Of a stretch of DNA of 64,000 bases, positions 10,898 through 31,164 are shown piece by piece. The DNA comes from a virus (taxonomy: Duplodnaviria; Caudoviricetes). The position numbers and the translations under genes were made by a program. Numbering within the stretch: position 1 is the stretch's first letter; each line of letters begins with the position of its first letter. The DNA is taken from positions 1 through 64,000 of IMG/VR virus record IMGVR_UViG_3300033066_001283; one strand, 5' to 3'. Below the pieces are notes generated by a model that saw only the letters and a list, made by a program, of their open reading frames with translations, was not told the origin of the DNA and did not search any database.

Positions 10898-12282
10898 TGA
10901 TTTCTCAAACATTGCAAACAGCAATACAACCTGCTGTTAAAAAGGAAAGACGGGTTGCTAGAGTAGCTTGGTCAGGAACTTCACTAGTTAATGCTCCTAC
11001 AGGTCAAACAGGATCAGGAGGATCAACTGTAACTCCATACAACTCTGATTATAGAGCATGTCAAATTGGTATGGGACCATTAACATCTGGTATCGCTGCA
11101 GCTGCTAATGGTAAGTTCAGAACATGTGCTAATTTGGGCGTAGGTGGCTCATACACGAAGAATACTATAGGTATTGGTATAAATGGTGCCTCTAACTATG
11201 ACTGGTATGATTGGCAACTTCCTAGGCTGAAAGCACAGAAGGCTGATTTCGCTCCAATTTGTATTGGCACTAATGATGTTAAATATACTTCAATTCTAAC
11301 ATCTACACAAATAGCACAGTATATGTCTTATATTGAGGATGGATGTAATCAACTATTATCAGTAGGAACTCTTCCTATGTTGATTAACTTGCCTCCATTA
11401 AGGTATAATGCAACATATAAGGCTACTCATACTGCTAATGTTATTCAATGGAATTATGCTTTAAGAAAATTAGCAGAAAGAATTGGTGTTCCTTATATTG
11501 ATGTATACTCTTTATTTGCATTAACTACTTATGAATGGGTGGCTAATACAACTACTGATAGTATTCATTGGAATTATGCAAGCAATAACATTTGGCCTAA
11601 GATTTGGGCACAAATGAGCCCATACTTTACATCTTCTACAGGTAATATGTCTTGTGCGGCTTTACCTAGAGATTTTGGATACTATGATAGTTATATTCAA
11701 GGATGGTTAAACTATCCATCTGAGCCTTATGGTTGGAATAACGTTTATATTAATAACGTTCAATCAGCTAATGCTGCAGCTAGTTCAAATGGTGTATATA
11801 CATCAGTATATTCTGCCTGGAACCCAACTAACTTTGGTGCTGCCGGACAAAGCTTTATAGGACCTGGTATAAAAGATACAGTAACATCTTCAGCTTCAGC
11901 TGCTTCAAACAGTTGTTATGTTTCTTGTGGTGCATATACAGGTGGAAACTTAACTCTTCCTACTGCTGGAACTAGAATGCTACTTAGTGGTTGGTTTGAA
12001 ATTACTTCTAACTCAACACCAGGTAATATGGGTGTATACCATAGATTTGTTTATACACTATCTAACTCTACAACTCACACTGTTGAGTTATTTAATACAG
12101 GTGCTGCTGCGGCTGCTACATCTGGACCATTCTACTTAGAAACTGAATTTGTAGTTCCCGATATGGGATTATCAAGTTTAGGCCCATTCTATCTTGGCAC
12201 AAGTTCAGGATGTGGCGGAGCTACCACTTTAGTACATTGTATGGCACAAGTGTCCGTACAGACATTAGATGCTATTTATTAA
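10897..12282 (+). CDS. SGNH/GDSL-family esterase with C-terminal beta domain; putative virion appendage enzyme
   Basis: block I GTSL, block II NLGVGG, block III IGTND, block V DSIHWN. Confidence 0.75.
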   Translation: MISQTLQTAIQPAVKKERRVARVAWSGTSLVNAPTGQTGSGGSTVTPYNSDYRACQIGMGPLTSGIAAAANGKFRTCANLGVGGSYTKNTIGIGINGASNYDWYDWQLPRLKAQKADFAPICIGTNDVKYTSILTSTQIAQYMSYIEDGCNQLLSVGTLPMLINLPPLRYNATYKATHTANVIQWNYALRKLAERIGVPYIDVYSLFALTTYEWVANTTTDSIHWNYASNNIWPKIWAQMSPYFTSSTGNMSCAALPRDFGYYDSYIQGWLNYPSEPYGWNNVYINNVQSANAAASSNGVYTSVYSAWNPTNFGAAGQSFIGPGIKDTVTSSASAASNSCYVSCGAYTGGNLTLPTAGTRMLLSGWFEITSNSTPGNMGVYHRFVYTLSNSTTHTVELFNTGAAAAATSGPFYLETEFVVPDMGLSSLGPFYLGTSSGCGGATTLVHCMAQVSVQTLDAIY

Positions 12283-12335
12283 CTCTTAATTTCACAGTAG
12301 AGTTCTTTCTATTTAGTTAACAGATAAATAGATTT

Positions 12336-12364
12336 GGGCTAGGAGAATTCTCCTAGCCCTTTTT
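12336..12364 (+). terminator. intrinsic terminator between convergent units
   Basis: perfect 24-bp palindrome GGGCTAGGAGAATTCTCCTAGCCC (12336-12359) followed by TTTTT. Confidence 0.85.
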
Positions 12365-12389
12365 CTTGTCTAAAGGAACAACTTAACCT

Positions 12390-12599
12390 TTAGATTATAC
12401 CAGAGTCATCACTCTCTGGTTGTCCGTCCGTCACAGTAGAAGGATGTAAATTGAAGTTTTGAATTTTACTGATAAAGGATAATGTAAGTTGAATTAGATC
12501 GAGTAGTTCATTACTAGTTGAATTTATTTCAACTGTTTCTTCTACACCATTTCTAGTACAGTTTACAGTTAATCCTGAAGGGTTCTTATTAATAATCAT
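12390..12599 (-). CDS. hypothetical protein
   Basis: ORF overlapping the lysin stop. Confidence 0.5.
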   Translation of the reverse strand: MIINKNPSGLTVNCTRNGVEETVEINSTSNELLDLIQLTLSFISKIQNFNLHPSTVTDGQPESDDSGII

Positions 12600-13092
12600 T
12601 GAACCTTATAAAATGGATGTTAGAACCAGACTTCCAATATCTAATTTTCTTCAAGCCCAGCCACCCTTCTCGAGAACCATCTTCATTAGTATTTCCTTCC
12701 GAAGTTCTAAGCCAATAGATACCTAATGGTAGCTTCTTTACTTCGTTAATAGCAAAGATATGACCAGTAAGAGTTCTAGGATCTAGATAGTATCCTAAAT
12801 CTCCTCTTTTAGCTTCACTTGCATCAGTAAATAGTCTACCCTTTCTATTAAAGAAATCTCTCCAATTTCTAACTGCTGCTGCAGGAAATGGTAGATCAGT
12901 TTTCTTATAAAGTCCCGTAGCCATACACATAGCGTATAAAAATGCGCTACACCACGGATTTCCGGGGTCTACTCCAGCTAATTCGAGATATTTATCAACA
13001 TAAGGTCCACGATTACTACCTTTTGGAACCTCAACAGCTCTACCTTTTAGAATTTCGTCACTTACACGTAATAAAAATTGCTCAGATCGCAT
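12589..13092 (-). CDS. CHAP-domain cysteine peptidoglycan hydrolase (putative endolysin)
   Basis: E.PKGSNRGP.VD.YL, PWCSAF (catalytic Cys), GHI (catalytic His), EGNTN; AAGGAG SD inside the upstream gene. Confidence 0.8.
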   Translation of the reverse strand: MRSEQFLLRVSDEILKGRAVEVPKGSNRGPYVDKYLELAGVDPGNPWCSAFLYAMCMATGLYKKTDLPFPAAAVRNWRDFFNRKGRLFTDASEAKRGDLGYYLDPRTLTGHIFAINEVKKLPLGIYWLRTSEGNTNEDGSREGWLGLKKIRYWKSGSNIHFIRFNDY

Positions 13093-13849
13093 TAGATTGC
13101 TCCTTTTTCTTTTTCCACCATTCTAGTTTTGCTTTTCTCATTTTCTCTTTAGCTTCTTCTGTTTTAAGAATACCCTTTCTTTTTATAGACATTTTTAATT
13201 TAGCTTCATCAGAATGCTTACGACCTAACTGAGCTTTTCTATTTAGTTCTGCAAGTTCTTTACGTCTCTCATCAGAATAATTTGCAATGGTTGCAGCTCT
13301 TTTATCCTTTTGCTCTTGAGACGTAGGTTTGCCAAAATTAGGATTTAAAGGCCCAGATAATTTAAGTCTCATCTTTTCTTTGGCCTCCTCAGAGTGATGC
13401 CTACCGTAGAAAGGATTGTCTTTCCCATATTTCTTGTGGGTGGGAGGTTTATCAGCAACAAAGTTAGAATTTAAGTACAGATCTTTGTTACTTTCATCAA
13501 GTAACTTTTGCTCTATTAACAGAAGATTGTCACTATCTGGCACTTCACAAATTATAGAACAAGTAAAATCTCCTTCTCCATATTTATTCCAGGCACTTTG
13601 GAATAAAGGGGAATGATGAGCATTACGTCTTAATGCTTGAAAATGATCCATAAGTCTATTTCTTATTTGCCTAGATGATCCAATGTAATATCTATTCATA
13701 GAAGCACATTTAATAATATAACAGCCACTTAACTTATTAATTTCTCTGGGAATGGAGGTAGGTAAATACCAATCAGAATAGTCAGATTCTTTAGCTCTTC
13801 CAGATGTTATCTCATCTGATAATTTTAATAAAAATTGTTCTGATCTCAT
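13082..13849 (-). mobile_element. free-standing GIY-YIG homing endonuclease with NUMOD3 repeats, fused in frame to a copy of the lysin's first 21 codons
   Basis: GCYII...YYIGSS...R...H...L, KYGE..F, EQ, YLN; NPFYGRHHSEEAKEKMR and GRKHSDEAKLKMS repeats. Confidence 0.9.
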
Positions 13850-13856
13850 TTAACCT

Positions 13857-14504
13857 CTATAGTATTAAAGCTTCTTTATCTAAAATAGAGCTTTCTTTAA
13901 CAGGATGAAGTGGAATAATAGACTCAGCTTTAAAATATGCTTTTATTGAAGTTCCTATATCATTAAAAGTGTGTCCTCTACTGATACTTGTTAACTCTAA
14001 TCCTAAAATAGATTCCGTAGTAGCAAAGCCTTGTTTATTTTTCTGAATCATAGTCAAATTATGTTTCCCTTTAAATATCTCTGTTGGATCATTTAAATAC
14101 TGGGATAGAATGATGTATCCTGAAATAGACTTGGGATATATGTACTCATCATACATTATTTCTTCAACATTCCCTAATCTGGTATTATCGAGATAATACA
14201 TTTTATCAGCACCTGTAAAGCAGGCAGCACCTACTGATGAATGACTAGATAAGAAAGAAAGTCCAACTAAACCACCGCCCTCTTGCATACGAACTAATTG
14301 ACAATCAAATAAGTAAACAGTAGAATCTTCTTCTTGAACTTTGATTGTATGAAGCTTATTGCCGAAGTAATATTGATTATATAAAGTTTCTGGAAGAACT
14401 AAAGATCCAAGTATTATAGGCATACTTCCTTCTTTAGCAGATGATAGTGCATAAGTAATATCTATATTTCCACAATCAATTTCGTCTATATATATTTGTT
14501 TCAT
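13857..14504 (-). CDS. hypothetical protein with two-fold internal repeat, weakly tail-tube-like
   Basis: YIDEIDCGNI...ILGSLVL versus YLDNTRLGNV...ISGYIIL. Confidence 0.35.
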   Translation of the reverse strand: MKQIYIDEIDCGNIDITYALSSAKEGSMPIILGSLVLPETLYNQYYFGNKLHTIKVQEEDSTVYLFDCQLVRMQEGGGLVGLSFLSSHSSVGAACFTGADKMYYLDNTRLGNVEEIMYDEYIYPKSISGYIILSQYLNDPTEIFKGKHNLTMIQKNKQGFATTESILGLELTSISRGHTFNDIGTSIKAYFKAESIIPLHPVKESSILDKEALIL

Positions 14505-14505
14505 C

Positions 14506-15108
14506 TTACTTGAATAGGTTCATATCAGCTGCTGTAGCTGCCTGTATCTTCTGGCTCTGTTCAGAGACTGTATTGATCATCTGAAGGAAGAAGAATAGTA
14601 ATCTCTTCTCATTCATGGTTGGTAGAATAGGATAGCCCTTGGATCTTAAATTAGCTGTAAATCCAATACTCTGATCCCATGATTCTAGAAAGCTCTGCTG
14701 CTTCATATTGTAAGTGATCAATCTAACATATACTAAACCTGGGTCAATATCTTGATCTGGAACTGCTAAATTATCTGCTGTAGCAACTTTAACTGTAATT
14801 GTCTTACAGAAATCAGAGAAGTCTTTTTCAACCTGTTCTCTAGTTACACCTGACTGCTCAGGGAAATCTGCTGGTAGGGTAGCTTCATTAAGAGCTGTAT
14901 TAACTGCTGAATAGAGCTCATCAATAGTGATGATATCTTCCACTCTATCTTCAGTCATTGAAATCTGAATAACCTTAGGAAGAATAAACTCCTTAACCCA
15001 AACTACTTTATCCTCTTCACTCTTCTGTAGGACTGTCCAATTCTGGAGAGTTTGGTTGTTTCTTTCTTCTACGGCTTCTGCGCTGTTGTCTATTACTGTT
15101 TCGGGCAT
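14506..15108 (-). CDS. hypothetical acidic protein
   Basis: 200-aa ORF, AAGGA SD. Confidence 0.65.
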   Translation of the reverse strand: MPETVIDNSAEAVEERNNQTLQNWTVLQKSEEDKVVWVKEFILPKVIQISMTEDRVEDIITIDELYSAVNTALNEATLPADFPEQSGVTREQVEKDFSDFCKTITVKVATADNLAVPDQDIDPGLVYVRLITYNMKQQSFLESWDQSIGFTANLRSKGYPILPTMNEKRLLFFFLQMINTVSEQSQKIQAATAADMNLFK

Positions 15109-26170: not shown

Positions 26171-27128
26171 TCTTTAGATCATACTCCACCATAATTTTAA
26201 TTAACTGATTAATGTTTGTTTCTGGTTTCCAGCCTAACACTTTCTCAGCCTTAGAATAGTCTGCTCTTAGTTCATGATGATCAAGAGGTCTAATAAATTG
26301 TGGATCTACCTCAACATATTTCTCCCAATCTAGGCCTACTTCTGAGAATGCTATATTAAGAAAATCTCTAAGTTTAGTACACACTCCTGTACCAATTACA
26401 AATTCATCAGGTTTATCATGCTGAAGAATTAAATGCATTGCCTTAACGTAATCCTTAGCATACCCCCAATCTCTACCAGTATCAAGATTTCCTAGAGATA
26501 ACTTATCTTGTAATCCTAGTTTAATTCTAGCAGCCGCTTTAGTTATTTTACGTGTTACAAAAGTATCAGGTCTACGTGGGCTCTCGTGGTTGAATAAAAT
26601 TCCTTGAGCTACAAACATATTAAAAGCATCTCTATGATGTTTACATTGATAATAGGCTGCAATTTTAGCAACTGAGTATGTTGATGTGGGAGCAAAAGGA
26701 GTATCTTCACCTTGAGGCGCAGGAGCCAAACCAAATATTTCAGAAGTAGTTGCTTGATAAATCTTAGATTCAGGGCAAACTAATCTGGCTGCCTCTAAAA
26801 TTCTAAGAAGTCCTATTGCATTAATATCCATAGTTTCAATTGGCATATCATAGCTAGTTTGAACATGACTTTGGGCTGCAAGACAATAGATTTCTGTAGG
26901 TTTTATCTGAGAAAATAACCCAATTAATTGTTCAGTTGAAGCAAGACTACCAGTATGAAGATGAAGCTTATCTTTAATATGTTCAATATTTTTAAGATTA
27001 TTACCGCCACTAACCTTTCTAACTAAACCATGAACTTCATATCCTAGATCTAATAAATACTCAGCAAGATATGATCCATCTTGTCCAGTGACACCAGTAA
27101 TAAATGCTTTCTTCTGTTTATCTACCAT
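26151..27128 (-). CDS. gmd: GDP-mannose 4,6-dehydratase
   Basis: ITGVTGQDGSYLAE, LAAQSHV, YQATTSE, YSVAK, LFNHESPRR..FVTRKIT, LGNLD..RDWG. Confidence 0.96.
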   Translation of the reverse strand: MVDKQKKAFITGVTGQDGSYLAEYLLDLGYEVHGLVRKVSGGNNLKNIEHIKDKLHLHTGSLASTEQLIGLFSQIKPTEIYCLAAQSHVQTSYDMPIETMDINAIGLLRILEAARLVCPESKIYQATTSEIFGLAPAPQGEDTPFAPTSTYSVAKIAAYYQCKHHRDAFNMFVAQGILFNHESPRRPDTFVTRKITKAAARIKLGLQDKLSLGNLDTGRDWGYAKDYVKAMHLILQHDKPDEFVIGTGVCTKLRDFLNIAFSEVGLDWEKYVEVDPQFIRPLDHHELRADYSKAEKVLGWKPETNINQLIKIMVEYDLKNESSNS

Positions 27129-27268
27129 TCATTATTTCCTCTTTTCTCTGCTAGCAAAGCTCCCATTCCACCAAGCATAGCATCTGGGTCTTTGAGAAGC
27201 CCTAAAGAACCATTAACTATATGCTGTACGATAGATTTACCAACTAAAGCATGCTTAGAGTTAATCAT
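27122..27268 (-). pseudogene. 48-codon orphan duplicate of the C-terminus of glycosyltransferase 27985..28653
   Basis: MINSKHALVGKSIVQHIVNGSLGLLKDPDAMLGGMGALLAEKRGNNEW*; 27/34 aa identical to the GT segment NSRHALVGKSVVQHLTNGSLGLVKDPDQMLAGMG; not in the ORF track. Confidence 0.85.
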
Positions 27269-27998
27269 ATTTAGGTGGAGTGTACACTCCACTCCTTTTC
27301 AAAGAATTTACAATTGTTTTAGATACAACATTATATCTTTCAGCAAGTTCAAGAGGAGAGTACCCCTGCAAAAATAATTCTTTTATCACAGAGTCTTCGG
27401 ACTTTATTTTAGATACTTTTCCCGATTTAGATCTAGATAATCTAAGATTATATCCACCAGTTCTATTTAAAGAATTTCTGATTGATGTGTAACTCACTTT
27501 GAATTTTTCACATAAAGCTTTAATTTGTACTCCTGTATTGTATAAACAACGAACTATATCATCATCTTCAGCCGTAAGTTTACTTCTAGAAAGCTTTTGA
27601 TCCAGTGTCATGGGAATTCCTTTATTACTTGATGGAATTCCTAGCTTTGCTCTACTGCACTTTTTCCTATGTGAGTCAGAATTTTTACACCCTTGTCTAG
27701 ATGCTCTAGCCTCAGTACAAATATTCATAGATAAGATGTCATTTTTATACTCTTGTAATAATTCATACTCAATCTGAATTACTTCTGATTCGTTGCAGTA
27801 CTTAAGTATTTCAAAAACGAAAGACTCTTCCCCATATTTATTATAGCATCTTTGCATATGGAAATTGAAATGTCTATTACATCTAAGACTGCGTAAGTGC
27901 TCATGAAATCTGTTACTAATATTTCTAGATTGGCCAATATAGAACCTATCATTTTTAGTACATGTAATTTTGTACACTCCACAATTATTTTGTATCAT
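27261..27998 (-). mobile_element. free-standing GIY-YIG homing endonuclease (NUMOD3-like plus tandem HTH-like repeats)
   Basis: GVYKI...FYIGQS..I..R...H...L, KYGEESF.F; two LY/LF..G.....L...F/Y.VS...I.NSL.R repeats. Confidence 0.9.
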
Positions 27999-28653
27999 AT
28001 TCCTCTCTTACAGTTCTTAATACTTCACCCATTCCCGCTAACATTTGATCTGGATCTTTTACTAATCCTAAGGACCCATTAGTTAGATGTTGAACAACTG
28101 ATTTTCCAACTAGAGCGTGTCTAGAGTTAACACGCTTAAGACAATCTTGCATATGATCATCCGCACACCAGAACAAGAAGCGTTCATCTAATGGTAGTAT
28201 TTTATTTAAACTCTCTCTTTTAAATACTAAATTCCAGCCTGTAAATAAACTTCCTGTTCCGTACCCTTCATGGACCTGATTAGAATCAAGATTAACATGT
28301 TGAAACCAACCTGGATTATATGGTGAAGCAGAATCTAAGTTATGTTCCTGCATTGCCTTGTATATTTCTGTAAACCAATGCTTGTGGAATATTACATCAT
28401 TATTACTGATAATCAAATATGGAGTATCTGAGTACTTAAAGCCAATATTTAAGAAGCGATTATAATTAAACTCTTCATTGGGGATAATGATCTTGGCTGG
28501 ATACTTATGTGAAGTATGGGGATTAGTTTCTACTACTATTGGATTAAACTTGAATTCTGTTTCTGAAGCAAGCAATGTATTAATAGCTTGCATAGTCAAG
28601 TTATAATAATGTTCATTAGCAGTATTAGCTAGAAATATGCAATCTACTTTCAT
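27985..28653 (-). CDS. GT2-family glycosyltransferase (target of the GIY-YIG insertion)
   Basis: IVVETN, FNYNRFLNIG, ISNNDVIF, LDERFLFWCADD. Confidence 0.85.
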   Translation of the reverse strand: MKVDCIFLANTANEHYYNLTMQAINTLLASETEFKFNPIVVETNPHTSHKYPAKIIIPNEEFNYNRFLNIGFKYSDTPYLIISNNDVIFHKHWFTEIYKAMQEHNLDSASPYNPGWFQHVNLDSNQVHEGYGTGSLFTGWNLVFKRESLNKILPLDERFLFWCADDHMQDCLKRVNSRHALVGKSVVQHLTNGSLGLVKDPDQMLAGMGEVLRTVREEYDTK

Positions 28654-30733: not shown

Positions 30734-31164
30734 TCAATACGACCAAGTAACTCCTTCATTTCTGGATTAACTGCAATCTGTTCAATGGTCTCTTCTAATT
30801 GGAGCTTGCCCATTGATGAGAAGTTAGCAAGTTGCTCAATTGCTTTATGAATATTATTATGCTTTTGAGTAACATTATCAATATCGATAGACTGTCCTTC
30901 AGCATCCGGATGAGCAAAAGAAGTTCTTTTAATTTGCTGAATAGAAACCACAGCGTGCTGTAGATCAGGTTGAAACTCGGCTTCAGGTATATATCCTCCT
31001 ATGTTGTAATTGGGTGAAACTCTATTTTCACACACCTCACATTCTAAACTGTGTGGGTCATATAATTGACATTTCTTTGTAAGAATGCATAAATGACAGC
31101 GAGGGCATTTAGAAATTCTAGAACTATCGTAGAAAGTTCCCTTTAATAAATTAGGAGTCTCCAT
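30730..31164 (-). CDS. hypothetical Cys-rich (putative Zn-binding) protein
   Basis: CPRCHLC....C........CEVC. Confidence 0.55.
   Translation of the reverse strand: METPNLLKGTFYDSSRISKCPRCHLCILTKKCQLYDPHSLECEVCENRVSPNYNIGGYIPEAEFQPDLQHAVVSIQQIKRTSFAHPDAEGQSIDIDNVTQKHNNIHKAIEQLANFSSMGKLQLEETIEQIAVNPEMKELLGRIE

Follow-up and report, generated by a model that had tools for sequence, protein, structure and literature searches.

A lysin gene in a viral genome (Duplodnaviria; Caudoviricetes) appears to have been colonised by a homing endonuclease that brought a replacement for the gene start it displaced. The DNA analysed here, called the window, is the stretch of 64,000 nucleotides that makes up positions 1 to 64,000 of IMG/VR record IMGVR_UViG_3300033066_001283. 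This record comes from a large uncultivated phage, of which 150 kb were recovered at an estimated completeness of 80%. In the window, a free-standing endonuclease of the GIY-YIG/NUMOD3 type has probably inserted itself about 21 codons into the lysin, together with a replacement lysin 5' end. The displaced resident start now opens the open reading frame (ORF) of the nuclease. From the sequence comparisons below, we put the probability of this reading at roughly 0.78.

The genes in question belong to a minus-strand gene run. Its last four ORFs encode a protein of 215 amino acids, the endonuclease of 255, the lysin of 167 and a product of 69. The endonuclease and lysin ORFs share 11 nucleotides of overlap (13082-13092). 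The parts on which the argument turns are these, in coordinates of the window:

13082-13849, minus strand: GIY-YIG/NUMOD3 endonuclease ORF, 255 amino acids, defined by the ORF and its domain matches.
12589-13092, minus strand: CHAP-type lysin ORF, 167 amino acids.
13808-13857, minus strand: probable resident translation-initiation region of the lysin (GAGG, context aggttaa-ATG, codons 1-14), now opening the endonuclease ORF.
13787-13849, minus strand: lysin-derived leader, endonuclease codons 1-21, MRSEQFLLKLSDEITSGRAKE.
13730-13786, minus strand: linker, codons 22-40, without similarity to the lysin or to other endonucleases and with a low predicted local distance difference test score (pLDDT).
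13082-13729, minus strand: endonuclease body, made up of the GIY-YIG domain (about 13484-13726), NUMOD3 repeats and a basic helical tail.
13100-13105, minus strand: AAGGAG Shine-Dalgarno (SD) motif for the lysin, 7 nucleotides before its ATG and inside the last endonuclease codons.
12919-13092, minus strand: lysin codons 1-58, a diverged and probably foreign allele that includes the catalytic Cys48, from comparison with the relative L001 described below.
12589-12918, minus strand: lysin codons 59-167, of resident type by the same comparison, including His111 and the conserved C-terminal strands.

The endonuclease ORF opens with MRSEQFLLKLSDEITSGRAKE (13849-13787) and the lysin ORF with MRSEQFLLRVSDEILKGRAVE (13092-13030), both on the minus strand. 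Both begin MRSEQFLL, 16 of the 21 residues are identical, and the nucleotide identity is 40/63. Nine of the 16 shared residues are spelled with different synonymous codons (codons 2, 3, 4, 11, 12, 13, 14, 17 and 21). The likeness stops at codon 21, just before the invariant E-x-P-x-G-S-N-x-G-P block of the lysin family (E21, P23, G25, S26, N27, G29 and P30). When the 150-kb record is searched in six frames with the endonuclease, the lysin start comes up at an E-value of 0.003, and the same search procedure applied to the flanks yields 1e-6. The similarity between the two starts evidently exceeds chance. An initial annotation of this DNA had described the two MRSEQ starts, their 16/21 identity with nine synonymous codons, a similarity that ends before a VPKGSNRGP motif, the AAGGAG (13105-13100) in the last endonuclease codons and the 11-nucleotide overlap. 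All of this was borne out, with the invariant block itself beginning at E21.

The place where the endonuclease ends is also informative. Its TGA stop (13082-13084) sits in lysin codons 3-4, where it is formed by the synonymous codons TCT-GAG of the lysin copy. With the resident spelling TCA-GAA, found in the leader and in L001, the endonuclease frame would stay open for some ten more codons. A stop built from this spelling suggests that the nuclease and the present lysin 5' end have long been neighbours.

The closest endonuclease-free relative is the contig L001, which carries a lysin (P0002) 75% identical to the one in the window. Other lysin relatives (P0003-P0007) are at 55-59%. L001 is syntenic with the window, with blastn matches of 90.4% upstream (L001:2420-5262) and 83.8% downstream (L001:6175-8912). 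In L001 there is no endonuclease, and the lysin ATG overlaps the stop of the upstream gene (ATGA overlap). The question of polarity, meaning which of the two lysin starts is the resident one, is answered here from L001 and from no other relative.

At the same site, the endonuclease is present in some genomes and absent from others. It is missing from L001 and all other lysin loci examined, and present in four assemblies. Three of these, L048, L049 and L050, are further independent assemblies from other samples which hold the same arrangement at 99.5-100% identity, so that an assembly artefact can be rejected. Phages of the nuclease-carrying type occur in the samples SRR32380193, SRR32380195 and JGI 3300020577, and those of the nuclease-free type in SRR33405045. 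The more distant lysin loci (L002-L010) have no endonuclease at the lysin, and in the loci around the six relatives P0002-P0007 no called gene with a GIY-YIG match stands beside the lysin. A tblastn search of 43 related loci with the nuclease body gave no match; with the whole nuclease, matches were confined to the 21-residue leader and fell on the lysin starts of L001 and L002. Wider searches were also negative. There was no blastn match to 12300-14600 among 50,697 phage records. An IMG/VR scan with the lysin alone found no relatives, and one with the lysin alignment found distant lysins only (at most 42% identity), none with a neighbouring GIY-YIG gene.

Of the two starts, the one that resembles L001 at the DNA level is the one fused to the endonuclease. 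L001:5993-6042, which holds the ribosome-binding site and lysin codons 1-14, is identical to window positions 13857-13808 at 46 of 50 nucleotides (92%). This is an island between two stretches without a blastn match, and the only part of L001 that aligns between the two long matches. Even if the expected identity is set to the 74% of the lysin copy, the binomial p of such a match is 1e-3. Over codons 1-14, the fused leader matches L001 at 38 of 42 nucleotides and the lysin's own copy at 31 of 42. The proportion of synonymous differences (pS) over these codons is 0.25 for the leader, which is the background level, and 0.91 for the lysin's own copy. Distant relatives reach only 20-28 of 39 nucleotides over codons 2-14, so the match between leader and L001 does not reflect general codon conservation.

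The initial annotation had proposed looking at whether the lysin 5' end of an endonuclease-free relative is closer to the fused copy, and in nucleotides it is. This comparison supports the fused leader as the resident lysin start, with codons 1-14 being the only part that is clearly resident. The polarity call is one made from nucleotide evidence in a single close relative.

It might be thought that nothing foreign is involved, and that the nuclease insertion simply doubled 63 bp of the resident lysin, after which the copies diverged in place. The copies are in direct orientation and flank the inserted gene, much like a target duplication. Their divergence is of the wrong kind for this, however. 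The two copies differ from each other at a saturating pS of 0.77-0.93, whereas the leader differs from L001 at only 0.25-0.44. Since the leader is closer to L001 than the two copies are to each other, duplication in place is ruled out, and the divergence moreover runs 37 codons past the duplicated part. The differences between the copies are mostly synonymous, which means that both evolved as working genes and neither as a neutral relic. Duplication in situ is therefore very unlikely.

Measured against L001, the lysin looks like a hybrid. Its codons 1-58 have 57.5% nucleotide identity, 34.5% third-position identity and a pS of 0.84. Elsewhere pS against L001 is 0.58 (lysin codons 59-167) or 0.25-0.50 (neighbouring genes). 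Identical residues are encoded by identical codons in 13 of 41 cases in codons 1-58 versus 52 of 84 in codons 59-167 (Fisher p = 0.002). There is no blastn match to L001 over the tract of codons 1-58, and the match resumes exactly at 12918 (83.8% over 2.8 kb). The proteins tell a similar story. Residues 22-58 are 59% identical to the close relative P0002 but 73% identical to the distant P0004, and residues 59-167 are 77% identical to P0002 versus 53-58% to the other relatives.

Judged by these comparisons, codons 1-58 of the working lysin come from an allele of a more distant lineage, whose join to the resident gene lies at about 12918, and this allele evidently arrived with the endonuclease. 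The initial annotation held that an element had inserted in frame at about codon 21 and had rebuilt the lysin with a foreign 5' end. The comparison with L001 supports this, except in extent: the foreign tract exceeds the 21 duplicated codons and reaches about codon 58. Despite its saturated synonymous change, the downstream lysin copy keeps 19 of the 21 residues of P0002. Given that it also has its own SD motif and ATG, this copy is presumably translated and under purifying selection.

It is the relatives of the gene that suggest a lysin of the CHAP type. The protein itself has no Pfam match at E-values up to 1. Its relatives at 55-59% identity carry CHAP matches, and 8 of the 10 proteins in the lysin alignment match CHAP (PF05257), the best at 1.7e-13. 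A tblastn search with the lysin also matched annotated CHAP proteins of Microcystis phages. C48 and H111, a Cys-His dyad, are invariant in the family alignment. The AlphaFold model of the lysin has a pLDDT of 87.5; its best matches are to cell-wall hydrolases, namely P60 domains, the CHAP endolysin Ly7917, RipA and Tse1, all of them weak (E from 3e-3, TM score about 0.5). Dyad and model agree with a papain-like fold.

The polarity could also be the reverse. The present lysin 5' end would then be resident, and the leader would be a passenger, the fossil of the first lysin allele that was invaded. At the amino acid level the lysin's own copy is indeed nearer the L001 protein: its first 21 residues match P0002 at 19 of 21 versus 16 of 21 for the leader, and it shares R9, V10 and L15 with it. 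At positions 9 and 10 the leader has K and L, as does the consensus of distant relatives. No available allele matches leader codons 15-21; they are about equally far from L001 (12/21) and from the lysin copy (11/21), with a heterogeneity p of 0.006. In a second cassette of this genome (27.1-28.1 kb, described below), it is the non-functional copy which is the diverged one, so that the equation of remnant with resident is no rule here.

What opposes the reverse polarity is mostly found in the nucleotides. The 46/50 island shared with L001 includes the non-coding aggttaa before the ATG, and the pS values over codons 1-14 differ as given above. In addition, the unduplicated lysin codons 22-58 are also saturated versus L001 and are nearest to a distant relative, which is not expected of a resident 5' end. 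We consider the reverse polarity unlikely.

The points just listed in its favour also weigh against an inserted nuclease with a foreign lysin 5' end, and there are others of this kind. A single close nuclease-free relative sets the polarity, and the key island is 50 nucleotides long. The gene upstream of the endonuclease is also highly diverged from L001, and one long donor tract that spans this gene too would be opposed only by the 92% island. No donor allele was found and no close nuclease homologue either: the closest is 33% identical, no second copy of the cassette turned up in another phage lineage, and an IMG/VR scan with the nuclease gave no relatives. As to the odd leader codons 15-21, the cassette may have existed before as a composite with a leader from a third allele, which recombined around codon 14/15. 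Alternatively, these codons may reflect junction scarring and relaxed constraint.

One further candidate concerned L001 itself, which might have been a crossover chimera that lost the nuclease by recombination between the repeats. It was rejected, as leader-like and lysin-like sites are interleaved.

The endonuclease is a conventional one from residue 41 or so onwards. The 255-amino-acid protein matches the Pfam families GIY-YIG (PF01541, 2e-12, residues 42-122) and NUMOD3 (PF07460, 2e-11), and also PHROG homing endonucleases. The catalytic domain of I-TevI (1mk0) matches at 3e-9, with I-TevI residue 3 aligning with residue 41. In an alignment of 30 sequences Y44, G57, R65, E113 and N127 are invariant, with Y55 and H69 nearly so. 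In the AlphaFold model, pLDDT is above 90 from residue 42 and 58-81 for residues 1-40; helical repeats occupy 154-254, and a helix is predicted with moderate confidence for leader residues 4-15. The nuclease looks active, because the catalytic residues Y44, Y55, R65, H69, E113 and N127 are conserved and the protein is identical in four assemblies.

The N-terminus is less conventional. In homologues the GIY motif starts at a median residue of 6 (10th-90th percentile 4-17, where recognisable), and here it starts at residue 42. According to the initial annotation, an internal endonuclease start, or a leader common to homologous endonucleases elsewhere, would have spoken against a fusion. Neither was found. 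None of 119 homologous endonucleases carries the MRSE leader. Endonuclease codons 2-50 hold no in-frame ATG, GTG or TTG, so that there is none between codon 1 and the GIY motif, and the next candidate is Met51, inside the first strands of the fold.

Only at the resident lysin start (GAGG, with a spacer of 4 nucleotides) does an SD-like motif precede a possible start of the endonuclease. SD-like motifs are found before 42% of the ORFs of this phage versus 11% of random positions, which makes them a real feature of this genome; for strong SD 5-mers the numbers are 24% of ORFs versus 3% of random sites. The best inference is that the endonuclease is translated as a leader fusion, with a 40-residue N-terminal extension. 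By its position it would then also have taken over the lysin's native start and expression timing, as the initial annotation had it.

The linker between leader and body may, speculatively, be donor DNA that once lay upstream of the original endonuclease start. Its codons 37-39 read ATT-AAT-AAG, at the position where homologues start. A comparison of the linker with the C-termini of upstream genes in other reading frames, made by eye only, produced nothing convincing.

The missing start codon could be taken to mean that the nuclease is a decaying, unexpressed relic, and that its in-frame fusion is accidental. It has neither a start codon nor an SD motif of its own, the resident SD motif is weakened (GAGG versus AAGGAGG in L001), and there are no close homologues elsewhere. 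An in-frame fusion would arise by accident with a chance of about 0.1, the product of one frame in three and a probability of about 0.26 that 19 codons stay open at this base composition. A relic would not be expected to look this intact, however. The ORF is uninterrupted over 255 codons, all catalytic residues are conserved and the fold is predicted with confidence. The four assemblies that share the identical protein do have single-nucleotide polymorphisms in the flanks, 4-5 of them in the upstream gene, and none in 12919-13849. A relic is improbable.

It is natural to ask whether an intron is present after all. The leader would then be lysin exon 1, spliced to codon 22 by a self-splicing group I intron, or joined to it by an intein. 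Leader codon 21 joined to lysin codon 22 would make a complete lysin, and JGI labels many homologues of the nuclease 'group I intron endonuclease'. Group I introns with endonuclease ORFs are also known from the lysin genes of Staphylococcus and Streptococcus phages.

At the lysin there is hardly room for such an intron, as the nuclease ORF and the duplicated lysin start nearly fill the interval, without space for a ribozyme core. Models for group I (Intron_gpI) and group II introns had no match in 12200-14700 at E-values up to 10. The downstream copy, with its own SD motif, its ATG and its retained residues, is one that seems to be translated and selected in its own right. An intein is excluded: the nuclease ORF ends with its TGA, and a new ATG, preceded by an SD motif, opens the lysin. 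A spliced arrangement is the least probable of the alternatives considered here, and its chances are slim indeed.

For a homing endonuclease that inserted with a replacement gene start, the events can be sketched as follows. The inserted tract would run from about 13807/13786 down to 12919, and would consist of the linker, the endonuclease body and the diverged lysin 5' end. This foreign 5' end would bring its own AAGGAG, ATG and codons 1-58. Its join near codon 59 would be in frame, so that the hybrid gene still encodes a lysin of full length. Upstream there would remain the resident ribosome site and ATG with the first 14-21 codons of the lysin, which form the only plausible start for the endonuclease. 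The nuclease would then be produced as a fusion, with the original initiation region of the lysin as its start and as part of one operon with it.

As to origin, one-sided repair of a double-strand break near codon 21 is the most likely. On the lysin side, the broken end would use homology to invade a donor that has the nuclease adjoining its own lysin allele on the 5' side. Synthesis would copy the donor lysin 5' end together with the nuclease, with illegitimate joining at the other end. A foreign piece directly 3' of the nuclease, combined with a 5' junction inside the resident gene without further homology, is as one-sided break repair predicts. For T4 intron homing, one-sided events with illegitimate joining at microhomologies have been reported (Parker et al. 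1999, as reviewed in PMC2988022). Alternatively, a composite cassette could have formed elsewhere and then homed in, with the short leader serving as its left homology arm.

The repair pathway proposed here would involve cleavage of nuclease-free lysin alleles near codons 15-30, and the hybrid allele would be shielded from cutting by its different spelling. The insertion point adjoins the most conserved motif of the lysin family. Sites next to the most conserved motif are a typical choice of homing endonucleases.

The genome contains other endonuclease genes with which this cassette can be compared. A second GIY-YIG gene (27261-27998, 245 amino acids, in a cassette region of 27122-28653) has a normal short N-terminus. 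It sits between a 222-amino-acid glycosyltransferase gene and a 56-codon ORF (27122-27292), which repeats the C-terminal 34-45 codons of the transferase (about 73% identity over 103 nucleotides, 27/34 residues). The reading frame of this nuclease begins with an ATG that overlaps the last transferase codons and ends with a TAA within the first codons of the 56-codon ORF, the orphan copy. The contig L015, from the same sample as L001 and 87% identical, does not have the second nuclease, and its transferase is followed directly by an epimerase gene.

In this second cassette the working copy is L015-like, and the downstream orphan is a diverged allele, chiefly in its distal two-thirds and tail. 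The polarity would thus be opposite to that of the lysin cassette. In both cassettes, evidently, the gene piece that directly follows the nuclease on its 3' side is foreign. That the second nuclease might have supplied a new C-terminus to the transferase is contradicted by the working copy, which is resident-like versus L015.

A third GIY-YIG gene (336 amino acids) lies outside the window at about 121355-122365 (L013:784-1794, minus strand). No flanking duplication was found there by tblastn and by blastn of 900-nucleotide flanks.

L015 also has a gene that the window does not. At L015:3190-4233 there is a 347-amino-acid HNH_3 gene, precisely absent from the window, where the blastn matches abut at 31160/31156 without flanking duplication. 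Together with the nuclease of the window, this means that endonuclease genes come and go in both directions between the two phages.

Two further features frame the cassette:

13857-14504, minus strand: upstream gene, 215 amino acids, defined as an ORF; its TAG stop (13859-13857) lies 7 nucleotides before the endonuclease ATG.
12336-12359, both strands: putative bidirectional hairpin terminator, a perfect GC-rich stem of 10 bp with 7 GC pairs, which closes the minus-strand endonuclease/lysin operon.

The upstream gene has no Pfam or PHROG match. Its C-terminal half is 50% identical at the amino acid level to a 119-amino-acid gene of L001, and its N-terminal half is unrelated to the 115-amino-acid gene of L001. 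Other relatives have different genes at this position, of 174, 197, 208 or 687 amino acids. Across relatives, 13857-14504 is by all appearances a hypervariable locus.

The hairpin separates the convergent lysin operon from a GDSL-lipase gene, and it is kept in L001 (L001:6733-6757, 25/25). The minus strand has no terminator-like site in the interval from the upstream gene to the lysin. A promoter and terminator scan gave nothing specific within the cassette.

Near the lysin 3' end and the start of the 69-amino-acid ORF, the L048 assembly (99.5% identical) has 12 mismatches bunched in 28 nucleotides (12604-12631). The Logan assemblies L049 and L050 both break at 12632. The mismatch cluster looks like a second small allelic patch in the population.

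If the cassette is what it seems, a homing endonuclease needs neither intron nor intein to inhabit an essential phage coding sequence and can instead bring along a replacement gene start, with the nuclease-free relative as the control. Such events would help account for short patches of saturated synonymous change beside nuclease genes in mosaic phage genes. For annotation it would mean that the 40-residue N-terminal extension of the nuclease is host-gene sequence, and that the lysin is a hybrid. A guess at the target of the nuclease would be lysin codons of about 15-30, beside the most conserved motif of the family. By position, nuclease expression would be tied to the lysis operon.

It is a far more tentative idea, and one that we would sooner doubt than assert, that phage homing endonucleases have here a general, splice-free way to colonise coding sequence. 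A differently spelled replacement gene end would restore the host gene and make it uncuttable. The displaced resident leader would provide a translation start and perhaps, for further homing, a short homology arm on the left (and an operator-like half site). If true, the presence of both a 5'-end and a 3'-end cassette in one 150-kb genome would point to a recurrent mechanism and not to two accidents.

Related arrangements are known. Free-standing GIY-YIG and HNH endonucleases of the T4 type, SegA-G and MobA-E, home without introns and co-convert flanking markers (PMC2988022, PMC2330249, PMC2790892). As here, close relatives differ in whether they have the endonuclease gene, diverged flanking sequence forms a tract beside it, and the ORF overlaps its neighbours, which suggests coupled, limited translation. 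The enzyme family and the domain layout, GIY-YIG plus NUMOD3, are shared as well. The T4 genes differ in their location, which is either intergenic or inside a gene that they divide into two working pieces, and PMC2988022 mentions no duplicated gene end or leader fusion. The phage nuclease described here, unlike these, has no initiation region of its own.

In Aeromonas phage Aeh1, mobE lies within nrdA (Friedrich et al. 2007, as cited in PMC2988022). From what that review relates, this is likewise a free-standing nuclease in a phage coding sequence without intron or intein, with host function retained. By the same account, nrdA is split there into two polypeptides that reassemble, whereas the hybrid gene in the window encodes a complete lysin. 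I-TevI, from the td intron of T4 (PDB 1mk0), offers a likeness in the protein: a catalytic domain with all catalytic residues, followed by DNA-binding modules of the NUMOD type. It differs in belonging to an intron, in not having a 40-residue N-terminal extension derived from a host gene, and in its low identity to the nuclease in the window. In the phage literature, of which our coverage is incomplete and gives no proof of absence, we found no description of a gene-end duplication around a homing endonuclease.

The closest parallel comes from fungal mitochondria, where mobile endonuclease ORFs (mORFs) create hybrid genes. These are atp6 of Allomyces macrogynus (Paquin, Laforest and Lang 1994) and atp6, atp9, cox2 and nad3 of Glomus sp. 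(PMC3630166). There the displaced copy is 91-98% identical to an element-free relative and the inserted copy 64-81%, with the protein conserved (PMC3630166). In both settings an intron-less endonuclease ORF lies in a protein gene, between two diverged direct copies of one gene end, and can be in phase with the host gene. In both, the working copy is foreign and the displaced copy resident, as judged by nucleotide identity to an element-free relative, which here is one close relative.

The differences are equally clear. All described mitochondrial cases replace the 3' (C-terminal) end, whereas the phage cassette replaces the 5' end and must therefore also bring a ribosome site and a start codon. 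The fusion partner of the phage nuclease is the displaced resident piece and not the inserted one, and the host is a phage and not an organelle. As far as its sequence can tell, the architecture is that of a mitochondrial mORF hybrid gene, with as its new traits the 5' end, the phage host and the leader-fused nuclease.

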